Of a DNA stretch of 26,253 bases, positions 811 to 26,253 are shown piece by piece. The notes under the pieces are model-generated. The model did no database searches. It was not told the DNA's origin and saw only the letters and a list, made by a program, of their open reading frames with translations. Source of the DNA: a virus; IMG/VR virus record IMGVR_UViG_3300031472_000015, positions 80,574 to 106,826 of that record, one strand, 5' to 3'. How positions within the stretch are numbered: position 1 is the stretch's first letter; every line of letters starts with the position of its first letter. The translations under genes and the position numbers were made by a program.

Positions 811-824
811 TTCACAGGAAGAAG

Positions 825-857: not shown

Positions 858-921
858 CAGTCCTTGCGGCAGTGGGGTAGGGTGCGCTACGCCTTGCAGG
901 CAACCCTGCGAGGCCGACGCC

Positions 922-6266: not shown

Positions 6267-6420
6267 GATGATCGGCATTCACCCGAAGCGATTGACCATC
6301 TTTCTTAGTATCGATACGAAAGAATAGGATTGCAGGCATGACATTCCTCCCAAAACGCCCTGGAACAGGCAGTCGGCATCCTATCCAACTCTGAATTAGA
6401 ACCCAACCAGGCGTCAGTCA

Positions 6421-7097: not shown

Positions 7098-7111
7098 GCT
7101 GGTTTCCCCTC

Positions 7112-7384: not shown

Positions 7385-7422
7385 GGTGTGTTGCTCCGAA
7401 AGGGTGAGGACGTGTCTGATTG

Positions 7423-7632
7423 TCAGCCTGTGCGGGCAGTGCCGTCCCAGGGGTCGGCTGCAACGGGGCATACGTTTGCGGCCAGGCGCGTCGCGTCGGC
7501 GTGACTGCTTCTTCGCAGCATGTCGCGAGCTGCCGGGGTCGCCGTAACTGCAAGCCCGAAGCGGCGAGCAACGGCCAGAAAATCCCCAATCTTCGCGAGC
7601 TGCTCAACAGCCCATTCCTCATTTGTGTCCAT
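7423..7632 (-). CDS. Hypothetical protein (69 aa)
   Basis: ATG at 7632 with strong RBS GGGAGG; sequence MDTNEEWAVEQLAKIGDFLAVARRFG...; fills the gap directly downstream of virD4. Confidence 0.55.
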   Translation of the reverse strand: MDTNEEWAVEQLAKIGDFLAVARRFGLAVTATPAARDMLRRSSHADATRLAANVCPVAADPWDGTARTG

Positions 7633-7658
7633 CAGACTGCCTCCCAAAAAGTTGCCAG

Positions 7659-10538: not shown

Positions 10539-10702
10539 CGCCGGGCTCCGGGGAGGTTGGCCAAGACCCTTGAGATGCGGACGAGCGCCACCGCGGGAGC
10601 GGCCAGCCACAGCGCGAAGGCGGCGGCCATCAGGGCAGGGAGGAGGCATCCGGCATAGGCAAAAGCGAGGACGAGGAACACGACGACATAGGAGGGGCGC
10701 AT
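10535..10702 (-). CDS. Small hydrophobic membrane protein (55 aa) between virB11 and virD4
   Basis: ATG at 10702, 4 nt after the virB11 stop, with RBS AAGGA. Sequence MRPSYVVVFLVLAFAYAGCLLPALMAAAFALWLAAPAVALVR. Its stop overlaps the virD4 start (ATGA). Confidence 0.6.
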   Translation of the reverse strand: MRPSYVVVFLVLAFAYAGCLLPALMAAAFALWLAAPAVALVRISRVLANLPGARR

Positions 10703-11759: not shown

Positions 11760-12866
11760 TCAGTGCTTCCTGGGGCGGTTTTCATAGAAGCGGAACAGGT
11801 CGATGTACTTGTTGACCTTGACGATCAGCGGCTGGCCGGGCCCGCGGTAGAGGGTCGGCGGGATGTTGAGGTCGTGCCCAAACGCCTGGGACGCCAGCGA
11901 GGTCGCCTGACCGTTCAGGCCGCCGAGGTTGAGGTTGGTGTTGCCGTTGCCGCGTTGCGCCAGCCCGGTGGCGACGTTGCCCGATGTGTCGATCAGGCTG
12001 ACCAGCAGCGCGGCCCTGATCTTCTTCCACAGGTGGTCGTTGACATCGCCGGGCACGCCGGGAAGGCCAAGCTCGTCGGCAGCCGGGGCGTCCAGCGGAA
12101 TGGCAAGCAGGTCCGGCGCAGGTGTTAGGGCATCGGTCCAGACAAGGAACGCCCGCTCCTCGCCGGTGCCAAGCCCGCGCTCGATGGTGCCGTTCACCTG
12201 GGTTCCGCGAGGCAGCAGGATCGTGTTCCCGTCCATGCTCCACACGTTGTCATCCACCGTGCATTCGACGGGGCCGGGCAGGGCGGTGCTGATCGCGCCG
12301 TCAGGTGTGCAGCCGAAGGTCTGGCCCTTCTTGATCGTGTATTGGACGTGGAAGCGCTGGGGGACCGGCGCCGTATCGGCAAAGTGGGTGGTCTGCATCC
12401 GCTGCGCATATTCGCTGCCGCCCGGCGCTGCCACGTCGGGATCAGCCCGTGTCGGCGCTGCCTGCGCCTGCGCACGGGTTGCCGCCCGCTGCGCCGCCTC
12501 CTGCATCCCGGCGGTGTCCTCCCAGAAGCCCATGACGCGCAGGGGTGGGGTAACTGCTGCCGTGGTTGGGGGCGGGACGGTGAAGGCTGCTGCGGCCGGC
12601 GGCGGCACGATTGGATGTGCCGCGGCAGGCTCGGGCGGCGGTGCCACGCGGAACAACTGCTCGGGCATCTGCTGGCCGATTGACCACGCGGCACGGGATT
12701 GGGCGGAAGGCGTCTCTTCCCGGGGAGCCCTGGGCCACAAGACCCAGGTCAGGCCGCCGGCTGCGGCCAAGGCGCACGCGATGGCGCCCGCTGCCCGAAC
12801 GCTGCCGGGCAGGTAGGTGCGTCCCCGGGCGACAGGAGAGGCACCGGGCGACGCGAGGCCGCTCAC
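11760..12866 (-). CDS. virB10: VirB10/TrbI core-complex protein
   Basis: GTG at 12866 overlaps the virB9 stop (GTGA). TM segment, Pro-rich linker, then IKKGQTFGC...ISTALPGPVEC...VWSMDGNTILLPRGT...DELGLPGVPGDVNDH...NIPPTLY. Confidence 0.92.
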   Translation of the reverse strand: MSGLASPGASPVARGRTYLPGSVRAAGAIACALAAAGGLTWVLWPRAPREETPSAQSRAAWSIGQQMPEQLFRVAPPPEPAAAHPIVPPPAAAAFTVPPPTTAAVTPPLRVMGFWEDTAGMQEAAQRAATRAQAQAAPTRADPDVAAPGGSEYAQRMQTTHFADTAPVPQRFHVQYTIKKGQTFGCTPDGAISTALPGPVECTVDDNVWSMDGNTILLPRGTQVNGTIERGLGTGEERAFLVWTDALTPAPDLLAIPLDAPAADELGLPGVPGDVNDHLWKKIRAALLVSLIDTSGNVATGLAQRGNGNTNLNLGGLNGQATSLASQAFGHDLNIPPTLYRGPGQPLIVKVNKYIDLFRFYENRPRKH

Positions 12867-13765
12867 GGTGCGCGCACGCCGCGGACGACATCGGGCGAGC
12901 TGGTGCCGGTGCCGCCGCCCGGCTCCGTGCCGATGGGGTCGAAGCGGTTGTTGCGGAGCGCGCACACCTTGCCGCCGCGGCGCAGGCGCAGCTCCCGGTG
13001 GACGCTGGGCAGGACGACCTGCAAGCCGTTCGGCATGGTCGCGTTGACCGTGGAGACGATGGCCTCCTTGTTGTCCTGGTTGATGATGTAAACCTCCGGC
13101 AGCACCGCATGGGGCGGGAAGACCATGGTGGTCCGGTTGCCGTCGTCGGTGACGAACGAAGGGGCGAGCAGCGGACAGCCCACCGGATCGCGCTTGGAGT
13201 AGTCCTCGTTCTGGGTGGGCAGGGAGGCGGCGAAGCGGACCTTGACCGCTTGGTTGGCCGCCGCGGCTGCGGCCTGCTCCCGCCTGGCCCGCCACGCTGC
13301 GACCGCTTCCGGCGAGGGGGTTGCCTTGTAGGCGACCTGGACGGTCATGTAGGCCGCCCGATCATCGGTGCTGGCGACGTTGCCTTCCCTGGTGTGCAGC
13401 TCGAACGAGTAGTGGCGGTCGCGGCCATCGGCGGTCGCGGTGCGGACGAACAGCATCGACGGCTCCATCTGGTGCATCGGCTGGAGGATCAGCACGTTGC
13501 CCGACGAGCGCGCGAGCCAGTCCTTCGCCTCCTTCGGATCGGTGAATACCAAGGCCCCGGCGATGGTCAGCGGCTTTTCCCCGGCCTCCAGGATCAGCTC
13601 CAAAGGCGACAACCCGGTGCTGGTCAGCCGCGTGACTTGCTGGGGGTCATAAGCGACGCTGCGGACCCTGGGGTCCTTGGGGCCTGGCGCGGGATCAACG
13701 ACGGCCAGCGCAGGGACCGGGGCCAGCAAGGCAGCGGCGAGAAGCAGCGGGCGCAGGTGGGTCAT
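12863..13765 (-). CDS. virB9: VirB9/TrbG core-complex protein
   Basis: Signal peptide, DPRVRSVAYDPQQV, GNVLILQP, RHYSFEL, P..VTDDGNRT, LPEVY, LRLRRGGKVCALRN. Confidence 0.9.
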   Translation of the reverse strand: MTHLRPLLLAAALLAPVPALAVVDPAPGPKDPRVRSVAYDPQQVTRLTSTGLSPLELILEAGEKPLTIAGALVFTDPKEAKDWLARSSGNVLILQPMHQMEPSMLFVRTATADGRDRHYSFELHTREGNVASTDDRAAYMTVQVAYKATPSPEAVAAWRARREQAAAAAANQAVKVRFAASLPTQNEDYSKRDPVGCPLLAPSFVTDDGNRTTMVFPPHAVLPEVYIINQDNKEAIVSTVNATMPNGLQVVLPSVHRELRLRRGGKVCALRNNRFDPIGTEPGGGTGTSSPDVVRGVRAP

Positions 13766-14496
13766 CGGGGGGCTTCCGGATCGAGGTCTGCTTGATAGTG
13801 GGAAAAGGCGATGCCCAGCGGGTCGTAAGCCTGCTGGATGTCGGGGGGGATGACGTCCGCCGCGGCCAGCCAGGTGATGCTCGCGGTCTTGCGCAGCGTC
13901 CGGGGCGGCAGGCCGGGGGCGGTAATCTTGAGCACGAAGGCGGCAGACACGGCGTAGGGCGTTGCGGGATCGGTGCGGACCTGGATGCCGACCACATCGA
14001 CCACGGCAGCGTTCAGTCCGTCGCCGTAGAGCGCGGCGGGGTTGTCCGGGTTCTTGCGGTCAAGCATCACGGCCTGGTAGCGGGCCATCTCAGCCGACGT
14101 GCTCATGGCCGACACCCGGCGGTAGTTGCCGTTCACGCTCTCCCAGACGTAGTTCTCCCGGTCGCGCACATACTGGATGACCGTGTGCCGGAACACTGCG
14201 TCATGCAGGCTGCGGGGCAGGTCATCGCGGACCTGGGGTGCATCAAAGGTGCCGTCGTCGTGGACGATGGAGACGTAAACTCGGTCATGCACGGTCGGCC
14301 GGTTCCACATGATGGCCAAGCACGCGGCGGCGACGGTGGTCATCATGCCGGCGACGATCCAGCCCCCGCCGATGGTGACGAGGCGGCGCAGGCGGCGTTC
14401 CCGAACCAGGCCATCGACAACGGCGTAGCTCTGCTTCGCCTCCGCCAGGGCATCACCGCGCAGGGCGAAGCCCGGCTCGCTGGCGATCTGGTTCAT
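13762..14496 (-). CDS. virB8: VirB8
   Basis: ATG at 14496 (TGATG overlap with virB7). Single TM, then VIQYVRDRENY...YRRVSAMS...NP...YG and a C-terminal DPLGIAFSHYQAD equivalent to NPLGF.V..Y. Confidence 0.9.
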   Translation of the reverse strand: MNQIASEPGFALRGDALAEAKQSYAVVDGLVRERRLRRLVTIGGGWIVAGMMTTVAAACLAIMWNRPTVHDRVYVSIVHDDGTFDAPQVRDDLPRSLHDAVFRHTVIQYVRDRENYVWESVNGNYRRVSAMSTSAEMARYQAVMLDRKNPDNPAALYGDGLNAAVVDVVGIQVRTDPATPYAVSAAFVLKITAPGLPPRTLRKTASITWLAAADVIPPDIQQAYDPLGIAFSHYQADLDPEAPR

Positions 14497-14675
14497 CAGC
14501 CATGCTCCCGGCTTGCGCTGATCATGCGGCCTGGCGCGGGGCTGAGCGGACTGGTGGCCAAGCTGGGGCGGTTGGCGGGCACCCACTCGCCGGTCGGCTC
14601 GGGCACGGTCGAGTACTCGTTGGAGGAGCAGCCAGCCAAGGCGAGGATGACGGCCAGGGAGAACAGCGGACGCAT
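14496..14675 (-). CDS. virB7: VirB7 lipoprotein (59 aa)
   Basis: MRPLFSLAVILALAG-CSS lipobox and P..G.W.P.N motif; lies between virB6 and virB8. Confidence 0.85.
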   Translation of the reverse strand: MRPLFSLAVILALAGCSSNEYSTVPEPTGEWVPANRPSLATSPLSPAPGRMISASREHG

Positions 14676-14680
14676 AGGGA

Positions 14681-15727
14681 TCAGCTCCGTGTGGAGTGCG
14701 TGATGGCAGGCGGCGGTGCGGGCGGCAGCGCGGCGGGGGCTTGCGAGCCAAGCTCCGGCCTGGCCAGGGACAGGCTGAGCGGCGGGGACGGCGGGCCAGG
14801 CGCCGGGATGGACGGGGCGGACCAGCCGCCGCCGCCGCGACCGAGAAAGGACAGGGCGTAGAGGGACGGCCCTGACAGCGCGATGCCGGTGCCGATGGAG
14901 TAGGCGAGGGGCTGGACGTTCCACATCACGTAGGCGCCGGCCAGGAACCATACGGCGATGGCGAGCATGACCTGGATCGCTTCGGCAAAGACGGCGGTGT
15001 TGGTCGAGGCGGTGATGATCGCGTTGGTCGCCTGGACCATGAACCACTGGTTGCCCAGCATGACCATCTGCAAGATCACGAAACCGATGACCTGCAGGAT
15101 GACCAGTGCGATCATCTTGCCGACCGCACGCTCGAAGATCGGCCGCGTCGCATCGAAGATGGCGCACCCGATGATGGCCGGGAACACGCAGACGATGGCG
15201 GCCAGGGTCATGCGCGCGACGATGTAGACCAGGGCAAGGAACCCAAGGCCGAGGCCGCCGACGAAGCCTGTCACGATGCCGGAGATGCCGGAGATCACGC
15301 CGGTGACGCTGAACCCGATTTGCATCCAGGCGGTGCCGATGATGACCCACATCTGGTTCCAGACGTTGTCGAAGATCGCGGCGGTGCTGGCGACGCTGTT
15401 GGCGGTCGGGCCGGTGCTGCTGGAGATGGCAGCCGCAAGGGCATTGGGAATGCCGGTGAAGAATACGTCCCGGACCCAATAGTTGAACGTGGCCAGGTTG
15501 GTCGAAAGGTAAAGGACCAAGCCGACCCGCACGAGCTGGGGGACGAAATTGTTCAGCGGCGAAGCGTCGCCGTTGGCCAACTTGACGCCTTGCATCGTGT
15601 AGTAGAGCGCGGCGCACAGGGCGAGCGGGGTGGACACATAGTTGACCATCGCGCTGACGATCCCATCCATGCCGGCGGACATCGCACCGTCGAAGCGGGT
15701 CACGAAGGTGCCGATCGGCGCGAACAT
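14681..15727 (-). CDS. virB6: VirB6/TrbL polytopic membrane protein
   Basis: ATG at 15727 (TGATG overlap). Multiple TM segments, FNYWVRDVFFTGIP, PAIIGCAIFDATRPIFERAV, Pro-rich C-tail. Confidence 0.9.
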   Translation of the reverse strand: MFAPIGTFVTRFDGAMSAGMDGIVSAMVNYVSTPLALCAALYYTMQGVKLANGDASPLNNFVPQLVRVGLVLYLSTNLATFNYWVRDVFFTGIPNALAAAISSSTGPTANSVASTAAIFDNVWNQMWVIIGTAWMQIGFSVTGVISGISGIVTGFVGGLGLGFLALVYIVARMTLAAIVCVFPAIIGCAIFDATRPIFERAVGKMIALVILQVIGFVILQMVMLGNQWFMVQATNAIITASTNTAVFAEAIQVMLAIAVWFLAGAYVMWNVQPLAYSIGTGIALSGPSLYALSFLGRGGGGWSAPSIPAPGPPSPPLSLSLARPELGSQAPAALPPAPPPAITHSTRS

Positions 15728-16098
15728 CAGCCGGCCCCGACCCGGCCGTTGCTCATGAGGGACGGCACGCACCGGGCCAGAGGATCGAACGGCCTGATCT
15801 TGTCGGCGGCGATCCAGCCTGGCCGGTTGTCGAGAGTGACGACCTCGGCGTAGCCGTTGACGACATGGCGGGGCGTCTTGGCGAACACGATGTTGGACGC
15901 GGTGACCAGCGTCGCCGCATCAGGGCGCGGATCAGCCAGGATCGGCACGCCCGGCCCGTGGCGATCAGCCAGTTGTGCCTCGGGCACATTCAGGACGGTG
16001 CAGGCCACCCCATCAAGAGGATGGACGACCTGCGGCTCTGCAGCCATGGCGGATACGGCGCACAGCACGGAGGCGGCGGCCAGGGTGATCCTGGTCAT
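15727..16098 (-). CDS. Secreted SH3b-like protein (123 aa) in the virB5-virB6 (eex) slot
   Basis: ATG at 16098 overlaps the virB5 stop (ATGA). Signal peptide ending SAMA-AE. SH3b-like pattern PILADPRPDA...VNGYAEV....RPGWIAADKIRPF, with a Cys pair. It is the C-terminal part of ORF-track 15727..17664. Confidence 0.75.
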   Translation of the reverse strand: MTRITLAAASVLCAVSAMAAEPQVVHPLDGVACTVLNVPEAQLADRHGPGVPILADPRPDAATLVTASNIVFAKTPRHVVNGYAEVVTLDNRPGWIAADKIRPFDPLARCVPSLMSNGRVGAG

Positions 16099-17567
16099 GT
16101 GTTCATCCCGAGCAGCACGGGTTGGCTGGCTGCGCTGGCACCGATCTTGTTGGTGATCGATGTCCGCCACTGGCCGACGGTCATGTTCGCCGAGATGCCG
16201 TTGGCGACGAGGGTGGAGCTGGACATGCCGGCCAGCGCGGTGGTCATGAGCTGGTTGCTGGGCGCGCTGGCCAGGCTTCCGGCATAGCCGGGTCCATAGT
16301 TGTAGTAGCCGCGGACATCGAGGACCGTGGGGTTGGCGATGCCGGCGGCCTGCAGGGCGGTGGCGCCGTCCTTGAGGTAGGCCGCGGCGGCGATGGACTG
16401 GCTTGCAGGGTCGTTCTTGGTGGTGATCTGGGACGCCAGGTCCGGATTGTTCTTTTGGACCTCGCTCACGGTCTGGGCGTAGGTGCCGTTCGACATCTGG
16501 AACGCGCCGCTGATGGTGCCGGTGCCACCGGGGTTGGCGGTGCAGTTGGACTCCAGCGAGCATGTTGCCGCCAGCGCGGTTGGATTGACGCCAAGGGCGG
16601 CGGCATTGCGGGCCGCCGCCTGGCCCCAGGGCTGGCTGGTCATCTTCGACAGCGTGGAGCCGTCGTCGGCGATCCCGCTGCCGCCTGTCGCGCTGACCAG
16701 CGTGCCGGTGGTCCCGCCGGCAACCATATCGGGGGACGCTGCCGGTGCGACGTTGCAACTGCTGGTGGCGGCGCTGCTGGCCAGGATGACGGCGCCGCCG
16801 GCCGCCGAGCTTGCGCTGCTGCCCGCCTGCCGCACCAACGCCTCGGCCGAGCAGCGCCACGCCTGCAGCTCGCGCGCGGCGTCCGTCGTCGCCTGGGCGT
16901 GCTGCATGATGCCGACCGCGGCGAGCTGGTTGCCTTGGGTCTGCGCCATCGCTTGCTCGCCGGCAAAGCGGGCGGATGCGTCGGTCGATGCCTTGATGTC
17001 GGTGGTGTTGCTCAGGCTGGAGCGCAGGCTGGTCAGCTCGGTCAGCCGCTTGCCGCTGCTGTCCAGCGCGGCCTGGGCGATCACCTTCTGGTAGGCGGCG
17101 GACGACGCGGTCTGGTTGATCGCCGCGGCCCGGAAGTCCGAGCCGGTCGGCGCATAGAACATATCGCTCCGCATCACGTTCTGCGCCAAGGAGGCAGTCT
17201 GCGTCATGCTGGATGACAAAGTGCCTGTCGCGCTCGCGAGGCCGCTGAGCGCCTCCCCCAGCCCCGCCGTGTCGGCGCCGAAGGGGTTGGTCAGGCCCAT
17301 TGAGCTGAGTTGCGGGCCAAGCTCGGAAACGGCGGCCAGGTTGCCATGACTGACCGCGGCAAGCGTATCGCGCAGGTGGACGATCTGAGTGATCTGGTTG
17401 TCGATGATCGTCATCTGGTTGGCGATCTTGACCGCATCCTTGGCCACCGTCTGGCCGAACTGGCTCAAGGTGGCCGCCTCGGTCGCCGGGTCCGAGACGA
17501 TCCATTGCGCGCGGGCGCCGCCGGCGTGCAGGCACAGGGCGGTGCAGGCGGCGAGGGTCTTCTTCAT
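16095..17567 (-). CDS. virB5: VirB5-like pilus-tip protein fused to a C-terminal lytic transglycosylase (SLT/lysozyme-like) domain
   Basis: Signal peptide ARA-QWIVSDP, helical NQMTIIDNQITQI, and RLTELTSLRSSLSNTTDIKASTDASARFAGEQA (VirB5 signature) over about the first 250 aa. After a G/S/T/A linker come LGVNPTALAATCSLES (Glu339), GAFQM, NDPASQSIAAAAYL and YYNYGPG. Confidence 0.85.
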   Translation of the reverse strand: MKKTLAACTALCLHAGGARAQWIVSDPATEAATLSQFGQTVAKDAVKIANQMTIIDNQITQIVHLRDTLAAVSHGNLAAVSELGPQLSSMGLTNPFGADTAGLGEALSGLASATGTLSSSMTQTASLAQNVMRSDMFYAPTGSDFRAAAINQTASSAAYQKVIAQAALDSSGKRLTELTSLRSSLSNTTDIKASTDASARFAGEQAMAQTQGNQLAAVGIMQHAQATTDAARELQAWRCSAEALVRQAGSSASSAAGGAVILASSAATSSCNVAPAASPDMVAGGTTGTLVSATGGSGIADDGSTLSKMTSQPWGQAAARNAAALGVNPTALAATCSLESNCTANPGGTGTISGAFQMSNGTYAQTVSEVQKNNPDLASQITTKNDPASQSIAAAAYLKDGATALQAAGIANPTVLDVRGYYNYGPGYAGSLASAPSNQLMTTALAGMSSSTLVANGISANMTVGQWRTSITNKIGASAASQPVLLGMNT

Positions 17568-19972
17568 TCGGCGGCGCTCCTGAATTGCAAGGTCGAGGGT
17601 TCGTCAACGACGCCGGGGGCCATGCGCTCGTAATGCGGCACCCACGCTTGCGGGTCTTCGCCATGCCGCGCGATCAGCCGGTTCATCAGGTCGTAGGTTG
17701 CGCGGCGCCCGGAGATGACGGCGATCTTGTCGGCCGCAGCGCTCAGGTCGAAACGGCACAGCACGGACCCGCTGGGCCGCTTGATGAGGAAGGTGTGCTT
17801 GAGGCTCGGCAATTGCTGGGTGACGGCCAGGAACTCCGCCTCGGTCAACCCCATGCCGTCGCACAGGTCGGCCCGGTTGCCAGTCTCGTCGCCGAAGAAA
17901 ATCTTGGTGGGGATCTGCTGCATGAGCGTGTGCGCGTTGGGACTGTTCAGCGCATCGCGGGCGCTTTGTGTCGCCAGCAGCACGACACCCTCGTTCTTGC
18001 GGATCGTCTTCAACTGGTCGTTGTTCTCGTCGCGGAACGCAGGGACCTGGTCGGTCTGCCAGAACTCGTCGATTGCGAGGACGATGGGGAGGCCGTCGAT
18101 CAACTTGCGGGTGCGGTAGAACAGGTAGGACAGGGTCGGCGAGCACACCGTGTCGTCGCGGAGCAGGGCGGTGGTGTCGAACCCAACCACGCGCGCATCC
18201 ATGCAGATCAGGTCGCGTTCGTTGTCGAACGCCCAGCCAAGCTCCTCACCGTGGCACCAGCGTTGAAGCCGAGCGCCAGCGCCGTTCTTCTGCCGCTGGC
18301 CCAGCATGACGACGATGCCGCCGATGCTGCGCTCGCCGGAGGGCATCCGCATCTGCATCTCGACGGCGCGGACCAGCCGGCGACCCTCGTCAGGTGACAG
18401 GTCGCCCTTGCCGTCCGACAGGATCAGGCTGCGGTGGAACTTGACCAGGAAGGCAACATCCTGCCCGTTGTTGCCTAAGCCCCGCAACGGCGCCGACCCG
18501 GACGACACCCCCGATTGCAGCGGCAGGTAGGACCCACCAACAGCGCGCACCATCGCGCTCAGGCCATAGTCCTTGTCGATAATGACAACCCGCACGGTGG
18601 CGTTGCGCAGCGCCAGCATCGAAATGCTGCCGAGGAGGGATGTCTTGCCGCTCCCGGCACCGCCGATCAGGAGACAGCTTCCAAGGTCCTCCTTGGGGAT
18701 GGATACCGCGCCCTGGACGTGGAAGTGGAAGGCATACTCGGTGTCCGAAGTCGTCCGGAGCATGACGATGGGAGCGCCCCAGCGGCCCTTGTAGATACCC
18801 CGGGGCACGTTGTGCCGGGCCGCCAAGCCAACGGCGTTGATGCTTTTGACCAGGCCGGGCCGAGGACGCCAGCGCATGTTGCCCGGGACTTGCGCGTAGA
18901 AGGCGGCCTTGAGCGCATCGGTTTCGCGAACGCTGGTGATGCCGGCTTCCGACAGGACGGTCTGGCACTTGGAGATGCGGCGGTCCAGCTCCTGCAAGTT
19001 AGACGCATGGACGGCCACCGAGAAATGGTGGGTGACGTAAACGCTGCGCCCGCTTTGCACGTCGTCTTCGTCCTGGACCAGCTCCTCGACTTGGGACCGG
19101 GCGGCGTCGTTGCCGCTTTGCATCTGCTTGACGCGCAGGCTGATGCTGGCCAGCGCGTCAGCCTTCTGCTTGCACCGGGTGGAGTTGGTGATGGTGATCG
19201 GGAACGGCACCGAGCGGAGTGGGGTGAACAAGGTCGGCCGGGTGCGGGCCGGGTAGTCCTTGAACGACAGCAGGCCGATGAACAGCGGCTCGCCCTCGCA
19301 CATCACCTGCAAGTCCTGGTGCCCGAACACAACGCGGTCCGGCACGACCAGGGCGCCCAGCCGTCCCAGGGTCAGTCCCATCGGCCGGAACCGGCCGTTG
19401 ACGATCAGGTGGAGGGCTTCGGCAATCTCCGAGAAGACGACGCCATCTGCTTCGCGGGTGCCCAACCGGCGCGCGCCGTAGCGGACCAGGCTAGCGCCGA
19501 TCTTGTCCAGCACCGTCTCGAAGTCCTGCAGCTCGATGTCCGCAACCTGCGGGTGGTCGCTGACGGTTCCGCCGAACAGGGACCGCAGGCCGGTCGCCAG
19601 GCTGTCCTCGGGGTGCATGATGACGGTAACGAACAGGTCGTTGCGGTAGAGCGTGCCGTCGCCCTGGGCGTCGCGGTAAGCGTCATCGAAGCGGGCGGCA
19701 AACCAGTTGTCGATAGGGGGCAGCGTCGCCATGCGCTGCCGGTCCTGCCGGACGAAATGGTCCCACACCTCAATGCGAGGGTGGGAGATGTTGCGGACCG
19801 ACTGGTTGTCGCGCGTGTTCGCGGAAACGATGGCCTGAGCGCCAGACAGCTCCGCAGCCAACCCGGCAAGGTGGAACATCGCGCTCAGCGAGCCGTCCTG
19901 GTTGACGACGACGCCAGGCGTCCAATGCCCAATCTGCGGCTGGAAACGCCGGGCGTTGCGGTCAGTCGGCAC
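17564..19972 (-). CDS. virB4: VirB4 ATPase
   Basis: GTG at 19972 with RBS GGGAG. RNDLFVTV, FKDYP, AAFYAQVPGN, FHFH, Walker A GGAGSGKT, IIDKDYG, Walker B AIDEFW, LKTIRKNEG, ATQS. Confidence 0.95.
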   Translation of the reverse strand: MPTDRNARRFQPQIGHWTPGVVVNQDGSLSAMFHLAGLAAELSGAQAIVSANTRDNQSVRNISHPRIEVWDHFVRQDRQRMATLPPIDNWFAARFDDAYRDAQGDGTLYRNDLFVTVIMHPEDSLATGLRSLFGGTVSDHPQVADIELQDFETVLDKIGASLVRYGARRLGTREADGVVFSEIAEALHLIVNGRFRPMGLTLGRLGALVVPDRVVFGHQDLQVMCEGEPLFIGLLSFKDYPARTRPTLFTPLRSVPFPITITNSTRCKQKADALASISLRVKQMQSGNDAARSQVEELVQDEDDVQSGRSVYVTHHFSVAVHASNLQELDRRISKCQTVLSEAGITSVRETDALKAAFYAQVPGNMRWRPRPGLVKSINAVGLAARHNVPRGIYKGRWGAPIVMLRTTSDTEYAFHFHVQGAVSIPKEDLGSCLLIGGAGSGKTSLLGSISMLALRNATVRVVIIDKDYGLSAMVRAVGGSYLPLQSGVSSGSAPLRGLGNNGQDVAFLVKFHRSLILSDGKGDLSPDEGRRLVRAVEMQMRMPSGERSIGGIVVMLGQRQKNGAGARLQRWCHGEELGWAFDNERDLICMDARVVGFDTTALLRDDTVCSPTLSYLFYRTRKLIDGLPIVLAIDEFWQTDQVPAFRDENNDQLKTIRKNEGVVLLATQSARDALNSPNAHTLMQQIPTKIFFGDETGNRADLCDGMGLTEAEFLAVTQQLPSLKHTFLIKRPSGSVLCRFDLSAAADKIAVISGRRATYDLMNRLIARHGEDPQAWVPHYERMAPGVVDEPSTLQFRSAAE

Positions 19973-20291
19973 GCTGGGTTGCTCCCAAGGGGTCGGTGCT
20001 GTCGCCGCCCCAGCGGCCCCGGTCAGCGAACAGCGAGCCGGACAGCATGGCGAGCAGCAGCACGCGCGGGCGGTTGTGATCGGTGGCGACCAGCCAGCGG
20101 CCAAGGGCCGTCAAGACAACCATCAAGGACAGCCACAGCGGGTTGCTGGTGACGACGACGATCAGGGCTGGCAGGCCGGTGATCGGCAAGATGAACCAAA
20201 ATGGGATGTTGAACCCCTTGATGACGGCCGGCCGGGTTGCCCCAACCGACAAGCCATCCCAGGGCACGTCCTCGTTGCCCCGGGCCGTCAT
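19962..20291 (-). CDS. virB3: VirB3
   Basis: L.VGATRPAVIKGFNIP motif and two TM segments; between virB2 and virB4 with overlapping ends. Confidence 0.9.
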   Translation of the reverse strand: MTARGNEDVPWDGLSVGATRPAVIKGFNIPFWFILPITGLPALIVVVTSNPLWLSLMVVLTALGRWLVATDHNRPRVLLLAMLSGSLFADRGRWGGDSTDPLGATQRAD

Positions 20292-20587
20292 CAGACGATG
20301 CCGTACGCGGTCAGCAGGTAAGAAGCGCCGAAACTCAGGGCGAGGCCGCCCACAGCCGCGCCGAGGTAGGGCACGAAACGGCGGCCTTCACCGACCGCCA
20401 TCACGCCGTGCACCGCGCAGATGAGGCAGATGACGATGCCAGCGAGCTTGAGCGCGTAGGGCAGCAGAACCGTCAGACCGGCGACGGGATCAACCCCGCC
20501 AGTGACGTTGATGGCATAGGCGGGCGTGCCTGCCGTAGCCAGAACGCCGGCGGCGAACAGGAACAAGGGTGCTGAGTGGGACTTCAT
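20291..20587 (-). CDS. virB2: VirB2/TrbC pilin
   Basis: 98 aa with a signal peptide ending PAYA, two hydrophobic helices and an LSFGA motif; coupled to virB1 (ATGA) and virB3 (TGATG). Confidence 0.85.
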   Translation of the reverse strand: MKSHSAPLFLFAAGVLATAGTPAYAINVTGGVDPVAGLTVLLPYALKLAGIVICLICAVHGVMAVGEGRRFVPYLGAAVGGLALSFGASYLLTAYGIV

Positions 20588-21231
20588 GGGTTGTCCTTTC
20601 GGGTATTGTGGTTGAAGGCGTCACCCAGCCCGTCCTGGTCGTCTTGGACGGCTGAGCTGGCATGGAGAGCATCCTCCAAGCCGGGAGGAGGGCGGCGCGG
20701 CGATGGCGCAGCGATGTCCTCGGGTGTGGCCGGGGCCTGGATGGCGCCGGCGATCTGGATGGCGGGGATGACTAGCGCGGCTGCACGCCACACGCGGGCG
20801 GCGTAAGCGGCGCCACGGTCAAGAGTGCCGGTGTTATAACAGGAAGCCATCGCACGGAGACGCTGCTGCTCAGCGCCGACAGTGCGGGCGTAGCAGCCGG
20901 CTAGAACCTCGGCGCTGACGCGAAAGCTAGTGCAGGCGTCAAATGACGCAGAGAGAGCAAGCCCGCGGGCCTGCAGGTGTCCCGCACGCCAAGAGATTTG
21001 CGCGGCACCTAGATCGACAGAGTGCCCGGCTGCGATAAGAGACGCAGCGGTTGCTACCGCATCTGGCAACGTGGCAGGCGCATAGCTGCGTCGATCCGTA
21101 TTGTCGCCAATGGCAAAGGCATTAAGGTTGCTTTCGGCCTTAGCAAACGACAGCAGCGTTTCAGGGGCAACGCCACCCGCGCAGGTCTGGGCCAACTGTA
21201 AGGCTACGAGGAGGGACAGGGTGCCGGACAT
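20584..21231 (-). CDS. virB1: VirB1 lytic transglycosylase
   Basis: ATG at 21231 with RBS GGAGAGG. CAGGVAPETL...AES.LNAFAIGDN, SVDLGAAQI, FDACTS, SCYNTG, Y..RV. Confidence 0.92.
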   Translation of the reverse strand: MSGTLSLLVALQLAQTCAGGVAPETLLSFAKAESNLNAFAIGDNTDRRSYAPATLPDAVATAASLIAAGHSVDLGAAQISWRAGHLQARGLALSASFDACTSFRVSAEVLAGCYARTVGAEQQRLRAMASCYNTGTLDRGAAYAARVWRAAALVIPAIQIAGAIQAPATPEDIAAPSPRRPPPGLEDALHASSAVQDDQDGLGDAFNHNTRKDNP

Positions 21232-21277
21232 GCGCCTCTCCAGCGGAGGCACGCTTCACTGCTACTCCCGCTCTAGC

Positions 21278-21307
21278 ACCATATGAGGCGCAAGAACGAG
21301 ACGCAAG
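21278..21307 (-). promoter_or_regulatory. Putative sigma70 promoter of the virB operon with an overlapping direct repeat
   Basis: Minus strand TTGCGT-17 nt-TATGGT (21306..21278), 46 nt upstream of virB1. The plus strand has GAGGCGCAAG (21285-21294) and GAGACGCAAG (21298-21307), a 9/10 match. Confidence 0.5.
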
Positions 21308-21329
21308 CGCTAATCAGCGATAATGCAAC

Positions 21330-21605
21330 CTATCCGGGTACCTTGGGGTCCGGCACACGGAGCAACGAGGGCACGTCCTGACCGACTGCGGCAGCCAGCC
21401 GGCGCATCGTATCCAGCGTAAGGTTAATCCGTCCAGCCTCAACGCGGCTGATGTACTGCCTGTTGAAGCCCGCCCTGTCCGCAAACTCCTGCTGCCTGAG
21501 CCCAAGCGCAACCCGAGCCGCCCGCAGGTTGCGGCCGAACAGCGTCCGCAGGCCGTTTGGGACAGGCTCGCCGTCTTCTAATGGGGGCTGGTCCGATCCG
21601 ATCAT
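21330..21605 (-). CDS. XRE-family helix-turn-helix regulator (91 aa)
   Basis: FGRNLRAARVALGLRQQEFADRAGFNRQYISRVEAGRINLTLDTMRRLAAAVG is a canonical HTH_3 domain. ATG at 21605 was chosen; the start is uncertain. Confidence 0.88.
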   Translation of the reverse strand: MIGSDQPPLEDGEPVPNGLRTLFGRNLRAARVALGLRQQEFADRAGFNRQYISRVEAGRINLTLDTMRRLAAAVGQDVPSLLRVPDPKVPG

Positions 21606-21888
21606 GGCGACACCATGCCAGGATTGTGCGTTGCGCGGCAACCTCAGGGGAGTTGAGTCATTGGGGCATTCTCCCTAAACATGATAGGATTGCCATCTAG
21701 TGCCGTCAGCATGCCACGTACGATGAGGCGCGGACTACTGTAACAGCCGCGTAGCTCGCCCTGCCCCCCGCCGAGCAAGATAAGTGCGCGCGGCCTCAGA
21801 ATATGCCTTGACGCCACAAATTCCGCTAAGGCAACACCCAGGAACGCTGCCGGAACGGCGGTGGGCCCCATCATCGTAGCGTGACCGC

Positions 21889-22296
21889 ATGACCGATGCA
21901 CCCAAGCGCGGAGCCAGGGGGCGATTTCCCAAGGGCAACGGAAACGGCAACGGACCAGGCTGGGGCGGCTCGCTCAAAGGTGCAGGTTCTACTGCACCGG
22001 TTGCACCTCCGTTTATCAAAGGCAACCAAGCCGCCGCCGGCCCTCACGACATGAGCCGCGAGGAGTGGCGCAGGTTCTGCCTGGGTGTCTGGCATTCGGT
22101 GGCGGATGACGTGAGCCAGCCAGGTACAGCCCGCAGCATCGCCGCTGAGAAGGCTTACGACCGGGTGGTTGATGCCCCGAAGTCCCGCATTGAGTTGGGT
22201 GGCCCTAATGGTGGCCCCATCCAGTCGGTCGGCATCACCACTGACGATCCTTTGGAGGCTGCGCGTGTCTATCAGCAGCTTGTGGGCGGAGGTTAG
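21889..22296 (+). CDS. terS: Probable terminase small subunit
   Basis: GRFPKGN and FIKGNQAA N-terminal motifs, and a C-terminal IELGGPNGGPI...DPLEAARVYQQLV typical of small terminases; upstream of terL. Confidence 0.7.
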   Translation: MTDAPKRGARGRFPKGNGNGNGPGWGGSLKGAGSTAPVAPPFIKGNQAAAGPHDMSREEWRRFCLGVWHSVADDVSQPGTARSIAAEKAYDRVVDAPKSRIELGGPNGGPIQSVGITTDDPLEAARVYQQLVGGG

Positions 22297-22359
22297 TTTT
22301 TCTTTCCATTGGCCCAAGTGTCCTGTAATATACCTAGGGACATAAGGCGAGCGGTAGGC

Positions 22360-23016
22360 ATGGGGTTTGTGTATCGGTTGGACTTTACGTCCGGCAAGAG
22401 TTACGTGGGTATCACTACAAAATCTGTTGCCATGCGTTTCAAGGCGCACGCTAGGAATGTAAAGAGCGGGCGCTTAGCGCATGTTTACGCTGCATGGCGC
22501 AAGTATGGTGCTCCTTCTGCTGTATGCCTTGAGGAATTGCCCAATTGTGAATTGCATGCGGCAGAGGTGCGGTGGGTGCTGAGGGAAAAGACCCTGCGTC
22601 CGGGCGGTTATAATATGACGACTGGTGGGGACATTTCACCAGCACTTATGCCAGAAGTTAAACTGAAGATGTCAGCGGCCCAAAAAGCATATGCAAAGAC
22701 ACCAGATGGCATTGCTAGGATAAACCGCAATAAAATTAAGTCGCCTGAAACAGGCGCTAAGATATCAGCCGCACTTAAATTAAGAAACGCTAATCTAGAA
22801 TATAGAAAGAGAATGGGCGAGGCCATTCGTCGGGGCCAATCTACTAATAAGGCTCGTGCGAATATGTCAGCAGGGCAAAGACACAGGGCTCCAATGTCCG
22901 TAGAGACCAAAGGACGACTTGCGGATATAGGCAGAGCTTTCTCTCTTACTCCGGAAGGAAGGGCGATCATATCGCGCGCAGCGGATGCTAGAAGATTGCA
23001 AGCCAAGCCAAAGTAA
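22360..23016 (+). CDS. Free-standing GIY-YIG homing endonuclease with NUMOD3-like basic repeats
   Basis: GFVY...KSYVGIT...RF..H...AWRKYG...E..W...GYNMTTGG, then repeats PEVKLKMS, SPETGAKIS, KARANMS, SVETKGRLA. AT-rich. ATG at 22360. Confidence 0.88.
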   Translation: MGFVYRLDFTSGKSYVGITTKSVAMRFKAHARNVKSGRLAHVYAAWRKYGAPSAVCLEELPNCELHAAEVRWVLREKTLRPGGYNMTTGGDISPALMPEVKLKMSAAQKAYAKTPDGIARINRNKIKSPETGAKISAALKLRNANLEYRKRMGEAIRRGQSTNKARANMSAGQRHRAPMSVETKGRLADIGRAFSLTPEGRAIISRAADARRLQAKPK

Positions 23017-24625
23017 GAAGTTTGTAAGAGAAGACTTCGACTACAAGAATCCAGACTATGTAAGTGTATTCCGCAGTCGCGTTGAAGCCCTGAATAGAAT
23101 TCGGGCTAACCCTGATAAGCTTCAGACTCTGAAAGCTTTTTACCGTGAGAATCCATCAAACTTTATAGATGACTGGGGTTGCACCTCTGACCCTAGGAAT
23201 GCCGCAGTCGGTCGCCCCGTCGTCCTGCCCTTTCTGCTGTTTGAACGTCAGCGCGAGTGGGTGAACTGGTTTATGGAAAGCTGGCGGACCAGCCGCCCTG
23301 GCGTCACGCCCAAGAGCCGCGAGTCTGGTATCTCATGGCTGGCCATCGCTTTGTCATGCACCCTATGCCTGTTCCATGATGGCTTAGTAGCGGGGTTCGG
23401 CAGTAGCAAATCCGAACTTGTGGACAAGCTGGGTAATCCCAACTCGTTGTTCTGGAAAGCGCGCGAGTTCATGGCGCTGCTCCCTCGCGAGTTCCGCGGC
23501 ACTTGGACGCGAGACGACGCTCCAGAGATGCGGATCAAGTTCCCAGATAGCGGCAGCGTCATTGTGGGGGAGGGCGGCGACAACCTAGGACGCGGCGGGC
23601 GCACTGCGTTTTACATCGTAGACGAGGCAGCTTCGTTGGAGCGCCCGCAACTTGTCGAAGCATCTCTGTCCGCAACAACAAACTGCCGGATTGACATCAG
23701 CACGCCGCGTGGAATGGGCAACCCCTTCCACACCAAAGTGACGACTTGGCCCGCTGAACGAGTTTTTTTCTTCCATTGGCGGTCGGACCCCCGCAAGGAC
23801 GAGGCTTGGTATCAGGATCAGCTTAGCAAGCTGGATGCCGTAACAATCGCCCAAGAGGTGGACATAGATTTCGCCGCTTCCATCGAAGGTGTCTTAATCC
23901 CAAGCGCGTGGGTTCAAGCCGCCGTGGACGCGCACCGCAAGCTAGGCATTGTGCCCACAGGCGCACGGCGAGCCGCGCTAGATGTATCTGACCAAGGTCC
24001 CGACACGAATGCCCTTTGCGGCGCACACGGCGTGCTTGTGGACCTGATGGAAGAATGGTCAGGCAAAGGCAGCGACATCTTCCGCACGGCGCAGCGCGCA
24101 TATGATCTGTGCGACACACACGGCTATGACAGCCTTAAATATGACGCCGACGGGCTAGGTTCCAGCATTCGCGGCGCGGCGCGCATCATCAACGAGCAGC
24201 GGGTTAAGCAAGGCATCAAGCCTCTGGCCGCAGACCCGTTCCAGGGGTCAGGCAAGGTGTTTGAACCGACCCGCAAAGACGCGAACAGCGGCCGACTCAA
24301 CCAAGACATGTTCCTCAACTGCAAGGCGCAGTCGTGGTGGGCGGTGCGGACGCGCTTTCAAGCAACATTCCGCGCAGTGACAGAGGGCGTTACGTGTCCG
24401 CCGGACAGCATCATCAGCCTGTCGCCAAGCCTACCGCTGCTGGCACAATTGTGCGGCGAACTGTCGCAGCCAACGTACACGATCAACGGCGTGGGGAAGA
24501 TCGTGGTGGACAAGACTCCCGAGGGCGCACGTTCGCCCAACCTTGCTGACGCGCTCATGATCCGGTTCTCCCAGACCACCCGCGCGCCGCTGACGGTATC
24601 TACTGCCGCCCTGGCCCTGATCTAG
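22985..24625 (+). CDS. terL: Phage terminase large subunit
   Basis: FDYKNPDY...FIDDWGCTSDPRN, PFLLFERQ, Walker A variant KSRESGISW, GRGGR, Walker B IVDEAA, ISTPRG, RNaseH-like LDVSDQGPD, YDADGLG, SPNLADAL. The start is uncertain because it overlaps the endonuclease. Confidence 0.93.
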   Translation: MLEDCKPSQSKKFVREDFDYKNPDYVSVFRSRVEALNRIRANPDKLQTLKAFYRENPSNFIDDWGCTSDPRNAAVGRPVVLPFLLFERQREWVNWFMESWRTSRPGVTPKSRESGISWLAIALSCTLCLFHDGLVAGFGSSKSELVDKLGNPNSLFWKAREFMALLPREFRGTWTRDDAPEMRIKFPDSGSVIVGEGGDNLGRGGRTAFYIVDEAASLERPQLVEASLSATTNCRIDISTPRGMGNPFHTKVTTWPAERVFFFHWRSDPRKDEAWYQDQLSKLDAVTIAQEVDIDFAASIEGVLIPSAWVQAAVDAHRKLGIVPTGARRAALDVSDQGPDTNALCGAHGVLVDLMEEWSGKGSDIFRTAQRAYDLCDTHGYDSLKYDADGLGSSIRGAARIINEQRVKQGIKPLAADPFQGSGKVFEPTRKDANSGRLNQDMFLNCKAQSWWAVRTRFQATFRAVTEGVTCPPDSIISLSPSLPLLAQLCGELSQPTYTINGVGKIVVDKTPEGARSPNLADALMIRFSQTTRAPLTVSTAALALI

Positions 24626-24626
24626 C

Positions 24627-26189
24627 ATGTGGCCGTTCGGGCGCACGCCCGCGCAGCCGCCACCTCGCGTTGAGCCTGTCCTACCTGCGCCGCGCCGCTC
24701 CATACGGGTCACCGACGCTGCCCTCATGCATGCGCCCAGCGCCAGGCTGGAGCGGGCCGCACCAGTTTTCGCGTTCACGCTTCCCACCGCGCTGCCTGGC
24801 GTCAAACCCGCCAACGCCGATGTCATCGCGATGGATCGCGCGATAGGCGATCTGTATGACGCTGCAAACGCGGGCACGCTGGAAAACGGTCTAGCGTTCC
24901 TGGGTTATCCCTTCCTCTCCGAGTTGGCGCAGCGAGCGGAATACAGGGTCGCCAGCGAAATATATGCCAAGGAGCAGACCCGCCGTTGGGTGCGTCTTCA
25001 TGCCAGCGGCGACAAGGCCAAGAACGACAAGCTAACGCAGCTCCGCAGCACGATGGATCGGCTGAACGTTCAGGACGTGTTCCGTGAGGCGGTCGAGCAC
25101 GACGGGCTGTTCGGACGCGGGCAAATCCTGCTGGACACCGGGCGCAGTGACGATCCCGCCGAGATGGCGACGCCTCTCACACTGACGCCAGCCAAGATCA
25201 AGCGCGGCGGCTTCAAGGGTCTCAAGGCAGTGGAGCCGCTGTGGACCTACCCTGGCGGTTATAGTAGCACGCAGCCGTGGCGCAGCGATTTCTACAACCC
25301 GCAGACTTGGTTCATGCAGGGCCAGCCAGTCCATACGACGCGCTTGCTGGGCTTCGTAAGCCGCCAAGTGCCCGACCTCTTGAAGCCCGCCTATATGTTC
25401 GGCGGCCTTTCCTTGTCGCAGATGGCAAAGCCTTACGTTGATAACTGGCTGGTCACGCGGCAGAACGTGTCGGACTTGATCGGCTCCTTCAACACTTGGG
25501 TGCTGAAAACTAATATGTCCGCCGGTATGGACGCGGCGGCCAGCCCCAACGGCATTGACACGGGCACGATGATCGGCTTGGTCAACCGCGCTGAGATGTT
25601 CACCAAGTTCGCCAACAACCGCGGCGTCTTCATGCTGGATAAGGACCAAGAAGACTTTGCCAGCGTATCCGCTCCGTTAGGCGGCCTGGATCACCTCCAG
25701 GCGCAAGCGCAGGAGCACATGGCGGCGATCTACCGCATCCCACTGACGATTTTCCTCGGTATTTCGCCAAGCGGCTTGAATGCATCTAGCGAGGGCGAGA
25801 TAAGAGTCTTTTACGATAATATGGAAGCGCAGCGCGAGCACACGCACCGCCGGCCGTTCCGAACCGTGCTGAACCTGTTGCAGTTGTCAGAGTTCGGGGA
25901 GATTGACCCCGCCATTGGGTTTGACTTTGAGCCGCTGTGGCAGGTGTCTGAGATTGAGCGCTCTACTCTCCGCAAGACGAACGCAGACACTGCGGCGGTT
26001 TATATTGAGGCTGGCGTGTTGACTAACGAGGAGGAGCGGGAACGCTTGGCGCGTGAGGACGGCGGAATCTATGACGGCCTGGACCTGTCCATCGTGCCGG
26101 AGATGCCTGGCATGGAGGATGGCGAGGCCAACGATCCGCTGACCGGGCAGAAGGACACCGAACTGAAGGACGCTATGGCAGGGGCATGA
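24627..26189 (+). CDS. Phage portal protein (DUF1073/HI1409-like)
   Basis: FLGYPFLSELAQRAEYR, DFYNPQTW, VHTTRLL, PDLLKPAYMFGGLSLSQ, PYVDNWL.TR..VSDL, NNRG, IPL...LGISPSGLNASSEGEIRVFYD, FEPLWQ; starts 1 nt after the terL stop. Confidence 0.88.
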   Translation: MWPFGRTPAQPPPRVEPVLPAPRRSIRVTDAALMHAPSARLERAAPVFAFTLPTALPGVKPANADVIAMDRAIGDLYDAANAGTLENGLAFLGYPFLSELAQRAEYRVASEIYAKEQTRRWVRLHASGDKAKNDKLTQLRSTMDRLNVQDVFREAVEHDGLFGRGQILLDTGRSDDPAEMATPLTLTPAKIKRGGFKGLKAVEPLWTYPGGYSSTQPWRSDFYNPQTWFMQGQPVHTTRLLGFVSRQVPDLLKPAYMFGGLSLSQMAKPYVDNWLVTRQNVSDLIGSFNTWVLKTNMSAGMDAAASPNGIDTGTMIGLVNRAEMFTKFANNRGVFMLDKDQEDFASVSAPLGGLDHLQAQAQEHMAAIYRIPLTIFLGISPSGLNASSEGEIRVFYDNMEAQREHTHRRPFRTVLNLLQLSEFGEIDPAIGFDFEPLWQVSEIERSTLRKTNADTAAVYIEAGVLTNEEERERLAREDGGIYDGLDLSIVPEMPGMEDGEANDPLTGQKDTELKDAMAGA

Positions 26190-26253
26190 TGCTGGCCTGA
26201 ACTGCTTTATATCCCCGACCCATGCCGCCTAGTTTTCTGGCATGTAATTCTTG

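Follow-up and report, generated by a model that had tools for sequence, protein, structure and literature searches.

Can a virus genome carry, beside the genes that package its DNA into a capsid, an apparatus that passes the same DNA from cell to cell? The question is raised by the last 26 kb of the 106,826-bp IMG/VR virus record IMGVR_UViG_3300031472_000015 (bases 80574-106826; this stretch of 26,253 nt is hereafter the window), in which a conjugation operon and the packaging genes of a tailed phage stand head to head. Positions are those of the window unless marked "genome", which refers to the whole record. The analysis combined an open reading frame (ORF) listing with Pfam and PHROG profile scans, tblastn, ratios of nonsynonymous to synonymous substitution rates (dN/dS), sliding identity and tetranucleotide correlation. 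As judged from these comparisons, the record is probably the genome of a complete contractile-tailed phage with a self-sufficient-looking conjugation island of the MOBF and mating-pair formation (MPF) T types, that is, a conjugative phage and possibly a phage-plasmid. The best explanation of the locus is that an island of 23-25 kb, from genome ~77-79 kb to 102.25 kb, occupies a variable slot just upstream of the small terminase gene terS; the island would come from the pool of plasmids and ICEs (integrative and conjugative elements) of the host family, and would have been kept intact at the same site in at least two diverged phage sub-lineages.

The layout of the junction given in the preliminary description was confirmed by the ORF listing and the profile scans. 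The virB1 gene and an XRE-type regulator gene point leftward, terS, a homing endonuclease gene (HEG), terL and the portal gene point rightward, all at correct coordinates, and a spacer of 283 nt (21606-21888) separates them. The frames of the type IV secretion system (T4SS) are all open, in agreement with the intact frames noted there, and the set of genes expected of a self-transmissible element is present, namely a MOB-family relaxase, a coupling protein, VirB4 and the MPF-T genes VirB3, B6, B8, B9, B10 and B11. The remark that terL and the portal gene are GC-rich like the tra genes holds in part, with 56-64% GC for the former and 64-72% for the latter.

The packaging genes belong to a phage genome that extends over the rest of the contig. 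The source record is classed as linear with a CheckV completeness of 100%, and no terminal repeat was found on its 106,826 bp. The end of the window is the end of the contig. The first 92 bases of the contig are the end of a cement-type gene, followed by the major head protein (phrog_264, 2.4e-57), an HNH/EndoVII gene, head and neck proteins, tail sheath (5e-82), tape measure and baseplate J. Further along are a large fibre region (19 kb), a lysozyme, a GcrA-like gene, several homing endonucleases, a primase (phrog_29234, 7e-166), a phrog_25637 gene (7e-34), an OmpA gene (at genome 69.5 kb) and a CI-like repressor gene (genome 60754-61188). Phage genes lie on both sides of the island (primase, phrog_25637 gene, lysozyme, GcrA), and the set for packaging, head, tail and lysis is complete except for MuF, protease and cement protein, which fall into an assembly gap. 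These three are present in contigs of a sister phage lineage, hereafter lineage B (L054, L055 and L057 from JGI; L056/L067 from Logan, made with another assembler), which bridge portal, MuF, protease, cement protein and capsid. In the alignment of lineage-B contigs to both ends of our contig, base 106772 aligns with L055 14197 and base 9 with L055 17971, which places the head genes in a gap of ~3.8 kb. The preliminary description had found it unusual that no head gene follows the portal gene and that an ATG frame at the portal stop soon closes. The portal gene appears without a following head gene because the contig breaks there, the frame closing as the contig ends, and the head module resumes at the other contig end. 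A head module split over both ends points to a molecule that is circular or permuted and of which a small part was not assembled, and the replicon is most likely ~110 kb long and circular or circularly permuted.

The contig ends in a non-coding tail (26190-26253, no strand assigned), where the head module is broken off. The bases after 106772 match neither of the lineage-B continuations (MuF, or a 142-aa gene and then MuF). The site after the portal gene is variable: MuF follows directly in L055, whereas L056 has an extra 142-aa antisense gene (L055/L056 14187-14630), and in our contig the portal stop is followed by unrelated, AT-richer sequence and then the break, a likely cause of the assembly gap.

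Annotation of both flanks, as proposed in the preliminary description, thus gave a full myovirus gene set without rep, integrase or att, and its statement that the junction is free of integrase, transposase, tRNA and att repeats was borne out. In the whole contig we found neither an integrase of the tyrosine or large serine type nor an rve transposase, ParA or ParB, and ParB_N, AAA_31 and CbiA had no match; there was no Rep family among the contig proteins scanned, no tRNA in the window, no host gene in the 107 kb, and no direct repeat of at least 12 nt common to both island borders.

The decisive relatives came from a protein search with TerS. Searches with TerL of IMG/VR and JGI metagenome contigs gave relatives of at most 64%, without T4SS within 10 kb; VirB4 (our allele and the lineage-B allele) had no match in IMG/VR; and a DNA search of PLSDB and GenBank phages gave distant TerL and portal matches only. 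A 95%-identical terS homolog was found on contigs from JGI 3300050312, -321 and -322 and from the Logan assembly of SRR22405825. In these lineage-B contigs the VirB genes, the SLT gene and the XRE gene lie on one strand, and terS-HEG-terL-portal-MuF-HNH-protease-cement-major head on the other. The join between XRE and terS is present in L055 and L057 (JGI) and in L056/L067 (Logan); at least four independent assemblies reproduce it. The 34-kb Logan contig L067 covers capsid, terS, XRE, VirB1-B11, VirD4 and a convergent relaxase homolog (71% amino acid identity) cut by the contig end, and the order of the conjugation module is the same in our contig and in lineage B.

More distant relatives show the site without the island. 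The terS homologs at 80% and 69% identity lie on contigs of 114.7 kb (L050) and 87 kb (L058) without T4SS upstream, and none of the VirB4 clusters from the protein search lies on a contig of either length. In L050, homologs of our OmpA, g71424 and g72771 genes are followed by terS 125 nt later; in our contig, 28.7 kb lie between g72771-73730 and terS. By this comparison, the island is an insertion in the phage backbone. In L054 (JGI 3300050312; 7100-8060), XRE, VirB1-3 and the N-terminal ~234 residues of VirB4 are left, fused beside a remnant of a g79880-like gene; this deletion of ~19 kb has removed the stretch from relaxase to VirB4 and independently confirms the left border. The sample of L054 also holds a full T4SS on another contig (L066).

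In our contig the left border lies between the phage-family gene at genome 76.5 kb (phrog_25637, 7e-34) and the first genes of the conjugative backbone; those at genome 79.3-81.2 kb have counterparts next to the relaxase of plasmid/ICE-like contigs. The border zone (genome 77254-79205) also contains a small serine recombinase (genome 77254-77961; Resolvase 2e-40; phrog_125, DNA invertase) and an H-NS-like gene, both typical accessories of plasmid backbones; the recombinase may serve in multimer resolution, in inversion or in capture of the island. The island is 2-5 GC points above the backbone, and its tetranucleotide signature correlates with that of the backbone at 0.85-0.90, equal to the correlation of backbone with backbone.

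Comparison of our phage with lineage B gives two very different degrees of divergence. The packaging and head DNA is 88-92% identical and the T4SS DNA 64-70%; at the amino acid level, TerL is 98.5-100%, the HEG product 96% and the capsid 95% identical, whereas VirB4 reaches 61%, VirB10 51-54%, VirD4 72% and the relaxase 71%. Our T4SS core is closer to L062 and L066 (91-92% nucleotide identity), and L066 has in its flank a DUF7146/Toprim protein and no phage homologs; our relaxase is 88% identical in nucleotides to that of L065, whose flank has an integrase and ParA. By sliding identity, a crossover lies within virB1 at ~20800-21200: from the spacer through XRE the sequence is 80-87% lineage-B-like (L055), and beyond it 81-97% L062-like. 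Because head and packaging genes are closely alike between the lineages, the T4SS has diverged and a crossover lies within virB1, the junction is to be read as old, with T4SS cassettes exchanged with the plasmid/ICE pool. The VirB4 clade spans 46-94% identity before a drop to 37%, and is found in plasmid/ICE settings with RepC/ParA or ParB/DUF736; it also occurs in metagenome-assembled genomes of Acetobacteraceae. This occurrence, together with the relaxase architecture, which is common among the "MobF family relaxase" proteins of Acetobacteraceae (Gluconobacter, Acetobacter, Roseomonas), and with GcrA, points to an Acetobacteraceae-type alphaproteobacterium as the putative host.

Between two phage-borne copies of lineage B, dN/dS is 0.07-0.25 (VirB1, B4, B5, B6, B8 and B9), and between our copy and L062 it is 0.08-0.28. 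With ratios of 0.07-0.28, the T4SS genes are under purifying selection. Two genes stand apart between L055 and L056, where the VirB5-like gene is 73% and VirB9 80% identical in nucleotides and their neighbours 93-99% (our equivalents are at 16095-17567 and 12863-13765), which suggests local recombination or diversifying pressure on surface-exposed parts.

On these grounds the following course may be proposed. The genome would be extrachromosomal, and the XRE-controlled virB operon would build a mating channel. The relaxase would nick the origin of transfer (oriT) in cis, probably near 675-804; the coupling protein, once its intein has been spliced, would pass the strand to the channel, and the primase fused to the relaxase would aid synthesis of the second strand once in the recipient. 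As the relaxase acts in cis with oriT, the whole phage genome would be moved by a working module and could be delivered in this way without a phage receptor. In the lytic cycle, TerS and TerL would package the same genome, island included, into heads. The earlier proposal that one element both conjugates and packages DNA stands as regards the presence of a complete conjugation system and a packaging module on one element, and the join is genuine; mating itself, like circularity, the extrachromosomal state, the position of oriT and packaging of the full length, is what we infer from the sequence.

Several observations weigh against a conjugative phage. The contig scans gave no Rep, ParA, ParB or integrase, and the gene content does not explain how a prophage would persist; if the phage is purely lytic, there would be little time for mating. 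T4SS-less relatives (L050, L058) and the ~19-kb deletion variant L054 show that the island can be dispensed with. The role of 675-804 as oriT is a guess drawn from the palindromes at 775-810, and VirD4 appears to be split by an intein-like insert that must splice. In addition, the purifying selection seen against L062 may have acted in a plasmid and not in the phage, and the frequent swapping of alleles also fits a selfish module that is repeatedly re-acquired. An objection from capsid size, that the structural relatives in the phage database have genomes of ~45 kb, was dropped, since close T4SS-less relatives lie on contigs of 87 and 114.7 kb.

Much of this evidence would also suit a module that is passive or selfish cargo, captured by recombination in a moron slot upstream of terS, which rides in the capsid or is tolerated and does not mate the phage genome across. 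The T4SS-less relatives and the deletion variant show the dispensability that cargo would have, the mosaic alleles are common to plasmid/ICE-like contigs, the same T4SS clade occurs in ordinary plasmid/ICE contexts with RepC/ParA or ParB/DUF736, and the island is without its own rep, par or integrase. However, a relaxase that acts in cis on an oriT within the island would carry the entire replicon across, and a working module would of necessity move the phage; the island has been kept at one site in two lineages despite ~35-40% protein divergence, and dN/dS between phage-borne copies is 0.07-0.25. We regard cargo as a rather unlikely explanation. That the window unites two adjacent elements, a prophage beside an ICE in a chromosome or a prophage in a conjugative plasmid (compare the phage-ICE tandems and the Hodor megaplasmids discussed below), is improbable. 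Such accretions are documented (PMC13651849, PMC12934698), the serine recombinase (genome 77254-77961) and the H-NS-like gene at the left border would fit them, and a 150-kb record with the same T4SS family (G001) has an integrase and ParA. Nevertheless, our 107 kb are without host genes, integrase, att repeats or tRNA, the head module wraps round the contig ends, and the non-phage part, at only ~24 kb and without rep or par, is no plasmid by itself.

The window alone shows no phage genes other than terS, terL and portal, and the preliminary description had considered that the element might be satellite-like and borrow its capsids, or might be conjugative and have put the terminase-portal motor to another use. 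Satellites such as phage-inducible chromosomal islands (PICIs), P4 and capsid-forming PICIs (cf-PICIs) lack their own capsid/tail genes and hijack a helper. Our contig, in contrast, encodes a whole virion and lysis set, with major head, neck, sheath, tape measure, baseplate, fibres and lysozyme, and in relatives the gap is occupied by MuF, protease and cement protein; both ideas are refuted by the contig content, and we see next to no chance for either. The remaining concern, a chimeric metagenome assembly of a plasmid fragment and a phage, could draw on the island being 2-5 GC points richer than the backbone. It would need two mis-joins, whereas both borders recur across independent samples and assemblers, and the same join in different samples and from two assemblers excludes a chimera for practical purposes. 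A conjugative phage thus remains the reading that we prefer.

Should the preferred reading of a conjugative phage be true, the virus may have two ways of spreading, as particles and through transfer of DNA from cell to cell. Tentatively, and with more doubt than certainty, conjugation may be seen as a second, receptor-independent infection route into cells that the tail fibres cannot recognise. The arriving genome would settle there or, in the absence of a repressor, go lytic (zygotic induction); host range would be set by the far broader mating range of the MPF-T system, and T4SS cassettes would be swapped with resident plasmids to keep pace with the recipients.

Textbooks and recent reviews present viral transfer and conjugation as alternative lifestyles whose trade-offs run in opposite directions for cost, host range and cargo size (PMC12282955), and a 2025 preprint found T4SS domains to be sporadic in putative phage-plasmids and judged the acquisition of a conjugation module unlikely (10.1101/2025.11.07.687105). 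Phage-plasmids such as P1, N15 and SSU5 (PMC7969092, PMC10879196) resemble our element in being tailed phages without integrase that carry plasmid-type genes and exchange modules with plasmids. There, however, conjugation is described as gained after loss of phage genes; here a full virion set and a full MPF set coexist, and the phage set of a phage-plasmid is present, while plasmid replication and partition genes were not found in the scans. The E. coli replicon p1002-1, a hybrid "conjugative phage-plasmid" (SegMantX, 10.1101/2025.03.14.643293), likewise joins phage-plasmid and conjugative-plasmid genes in one replicon. It has been described as two whole replicons fused together, both of which can still be recognised in related strains, whereas our element has the transfer module only, without rep/par, at a fixed site and conserved between lineages that have diverged. 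Phage-ICE tandems (Huang et al. 2026, PMC13651849) show that neighbouring conjugation machinery can move phage DNA. They are site-specific accretions in the chromosome with integrases and att sites, and their authors say that they are not hybrid elements; in our contig scans, the integrase and att in a chromosome by which an ICE or a phage-ICE tandem is recognised were not found, and the module lies inside the phage. In the Hodor megaplasmids (Yuan et al. 2026, PMC12934698), too, conjugation may decouple lysogenic from infective host range, but these are plasmids of >300 kb with their own replication and partition in which the prophage is a passenger, and here ~80% of the replicon is phage.

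With the MOBF/MPF-T systems (R388 TrwC/Trw; plasmids of Gluconobacter, Acetobacter and Roseomonas) the module shares the TrwC relaxase-helicase, VirD4, the VirB1-B11 order and an HTH_3 gene at the head of virB; it differs in lying in a phage genome, in a VirD4 with an intein and in having no plasmid backbone. The Burkholderia phage Magia and the Bcep1- and PE067-type myoviruses (~45 kb) have the order terS-terL-portal-MuF-protease-structural-major head-neck-sheath-tape measure, and our order is collinear with that of Magia, in which portal and major head are separated by a MuF-like head protein, a protease and a small structural protein. Against Magia-type phages, TerL is 59% and the sheath up to 53% identical in amino acids, and our genome is more than twice as large, with the 19-kb fibre region, several homing endonucleases and the conjugation island. 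A tblastn search with VirB4 against 50,697 GenBank phage records gave only three uncultured faecal fragments with <30% identity. On present comparisons, the element differs from the described composites in having a transfer module without rep, par or int at a fixed phage site, conserved across lineages.

A complete tailed phage in which, across several natural populations, purifying selection acts on a complete conjugation system kept at one fixed site offers a natural system for asking whether both routes operate in one element, whether host range is widened by conjugation, and how the capsid limit is reconciled with a 24-kb module. The case matters, too, for virus/plasmid classifiers, as these force a choice between the two.

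The divergent spacer (21606-21888, 283 nt, no strand assigned) forms the right border of the island, and both of its edges are conserved between the lineages. Alignment with lineage B shows an insert of ~110 nt specific to our contig at ~21660-21775, which holds a second copy of the motif CATG[CA][CT]AGGATTG (copies at 21614 and 21680), and a GTTGC-N3-GCAAC palindrome at 21630 is conserved in both lineages. Since these operator-like motifs (21614, 21630, 21680) have no copy elsewhere in the contig, and since an HTH_3 gene heads the virB operon in non-phage relatives also, the XRE regulator is not evidently a switch common to both modules. The XRE allele nonetheless travels with the phage side of the virB1 crossover. 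Its gene (21330-21605, minus strand; HTH_31 5e-13, HTH_3 6e-13; 84% amino acid identity to lineage B) heads the virB operon and starts at the ATG at 21605, with a longer TTG frame reaching 21641.

On the plus strand, the packaging genes begin with the candidate small terminase gene (21889-22296, 135 aa). It has no Pfam, PHROG or PDB profile match, and its AlphaFold2 model was unusable (predicted local distance difference test score, pLDDT, 45); the name draws on position, with homologs of 69-95% directly upstream of, or overlapping, terL, and on a C-terminal part that relatives have conserved immediately upstream of terL. Its look-alikes in the Atlas are viral, one set having DUF5681, which we take as a lead only. 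The GIY-YIG homing endonuclease gene (22309-23016, plus strand; phrog_314, 6e-19) lies between terS and terL; it is 96% identical in amino acids in the T4SS-bearing lineage B and absent in the T4SS-less L050 and L058, where terS overlaps terL. The large terminase gene terL (22985-24625, plus strand; phrog_2, 9e-27) encodes a protein 59-64% identical to those of Magia-type phages and 98.5-100% to those of lineage B. The portal gene (24627-26189, plus strand) belongs to PF06381, formerly DUF1073 (Pfam 2.9e-73; phrog_146, 1.3e-97).

At the left end of the window, the 5' part (3-221, minus strand) of a 304-aa gene (genome 79880-80794) belongs to the conjugative backbone left of the relaxase, and its homologs of 46-53% amino acid identity adjoin the relaxase in the plasmid/ICE-like contigs L065 and L066. 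Next to it is a 145-aa backbone gene (237-674, minus strand) without Pfam or PHROG match, which has weak homologs at the same place in L065, L066 and G001. The spacer that follows (675-804, no strand assigned) contains palindromes and may be an oriT or an operator; one palindrome lies at 775-790, and there is a repeat at 801-810. A candidate relaxosome accessory gene (805-1257, plus strand, 150 aa) is 89% identical in amino acids to the gene directly upstream of the relaxase in L065. The 1430-aa relaxase (1268-5560, plus strand) joins MOBF relaxase, superfamily 1 (SF1) helicase and Toprim primase parts (TrwC 1.7e-39, AAA_30 1.9e-29, Toprim_3 1.2e-9). It is followed by an AT-richer insert of ~48% GC (5561-6420, no strand assigned), with a 138-aa ORF that encodes an NTPase fragment, STAND/AAA_16-like (phrog_6841); neither L065 nor L066 has this insert here, and in both a 114-117-aa gene comes after the relaxase.

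The remaining genes of the island are all on the minus strand. Two are conserved genes of T4SS modules, one of 151 aa (6421-6876) with 50-93% amino acid homologs beside VirD4 in L059, L061, L063, L065, L066 and L067, the other of 119 aa (7112-7471) with 56-97% homologs in L059, L061, L063 and L066. The coupling protein gene VirD4/TraG (7659-10649; T4SS-DNA_transf 1.5e-74, TraG-D_C, LAGLIDADG_3 1.3e-9) contains the LAGLIDADG intein-like insert at 8889-9965, which is specific to our copy, the homologs in L061, L065, L066 and L067 having 598-600 aa without insert. In the relative L063, a LAGLIDADG insert is found in VirB4 instead, and that VirB4 is also split. The VirB11 ATPase (10707-11756; T2SSE 1.6e-14) is 97% identical in amino acids to L062 and L066, with a dN/dS of 0.08. 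VirB10/TrbI (11760-12866; TrbI 3.5e-35) is 89% identical to L062 over 369 residues; its frame is open to 13295, and the start was placed after relatives. VirB9/CagX (12863-13765; CagX 7.6e-22) has a dN/dS of 0.18 against L062. For VirB8 (13762-14751; VirB8 8.7e-21) the true start is probably later, as relatives have 244-245 aa. VirB6/TrbL (14681-15772; dN/dS 0.10) is a homolog of PF04610 TrbL genes in L062 and L055.

Between VirB6 and VirB5 lies a small conserved gene of ~123 aa (15727-16098), with equivalents of 123-124 aa in L055, L062 and L066; the rest of a 645-aa frame at 15727-17664, beyond this gene, was rejected as an alternative-frame artefact. The VirB5-like protein (16095-17567, 490 aa) is 95% identical to L062, and its relatives carry PF07996. 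The VirB4 ATPase (17564-19972; CagE_TrbE_VirB 2e-37) is 94% identical in amino acids to P0006/L062 and 61% to lineage B, its frame being open to 20104. VirB3 (19962-20291; PF05101, 4.8e-7), the VirB2 pilin (20291-20587; a weak TrbC/VIRB2 match of 1e-3, at the same place in all relatives) and the VirB1 lytic transglycosylase (20584-21252; SLT 2.5e-4) complete the operon.

Two further records bring the same or related conjugation genes together with phage genes. G001 (IMGVR_UViG_3300048861_000143, 149.8 kb, CheckV 97%), a phage-like record unrelated to ours, has a portal (phrog_146, 1.6e-124; 22% identical to ours), a protease, a major head protein and a 1636-aa tail protein, together with a conjugation set of the same family, XRE-VirB1..VirD4 plus MOBF relaxase (VirB4 46%, relaxase 36.5% amino acid identity), ~47-68 kb away, and with a tyrosine recombinase and a ParA-like gene. 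A VirB4 identical to that of G001 occurs on a 106.7-kb Logan contig (L060), flanked by DnaB, YqaJ, ERF and a methylase. This conjugation family is therefore associated with phage-like replicons in more than one lineage, although G001 may be a cointegrate. In L063 (ENA ERZ25039523 contig_3732, 81 kb), an Sf6-type small terminase gene (1379-1984) stands alone, without adjacent terL, ~6 kb from VirB1 of a related T4SS, and a resolvase lies in between; L063 may represent a conjugative element that carries terS and hijacks the packaging of phages.

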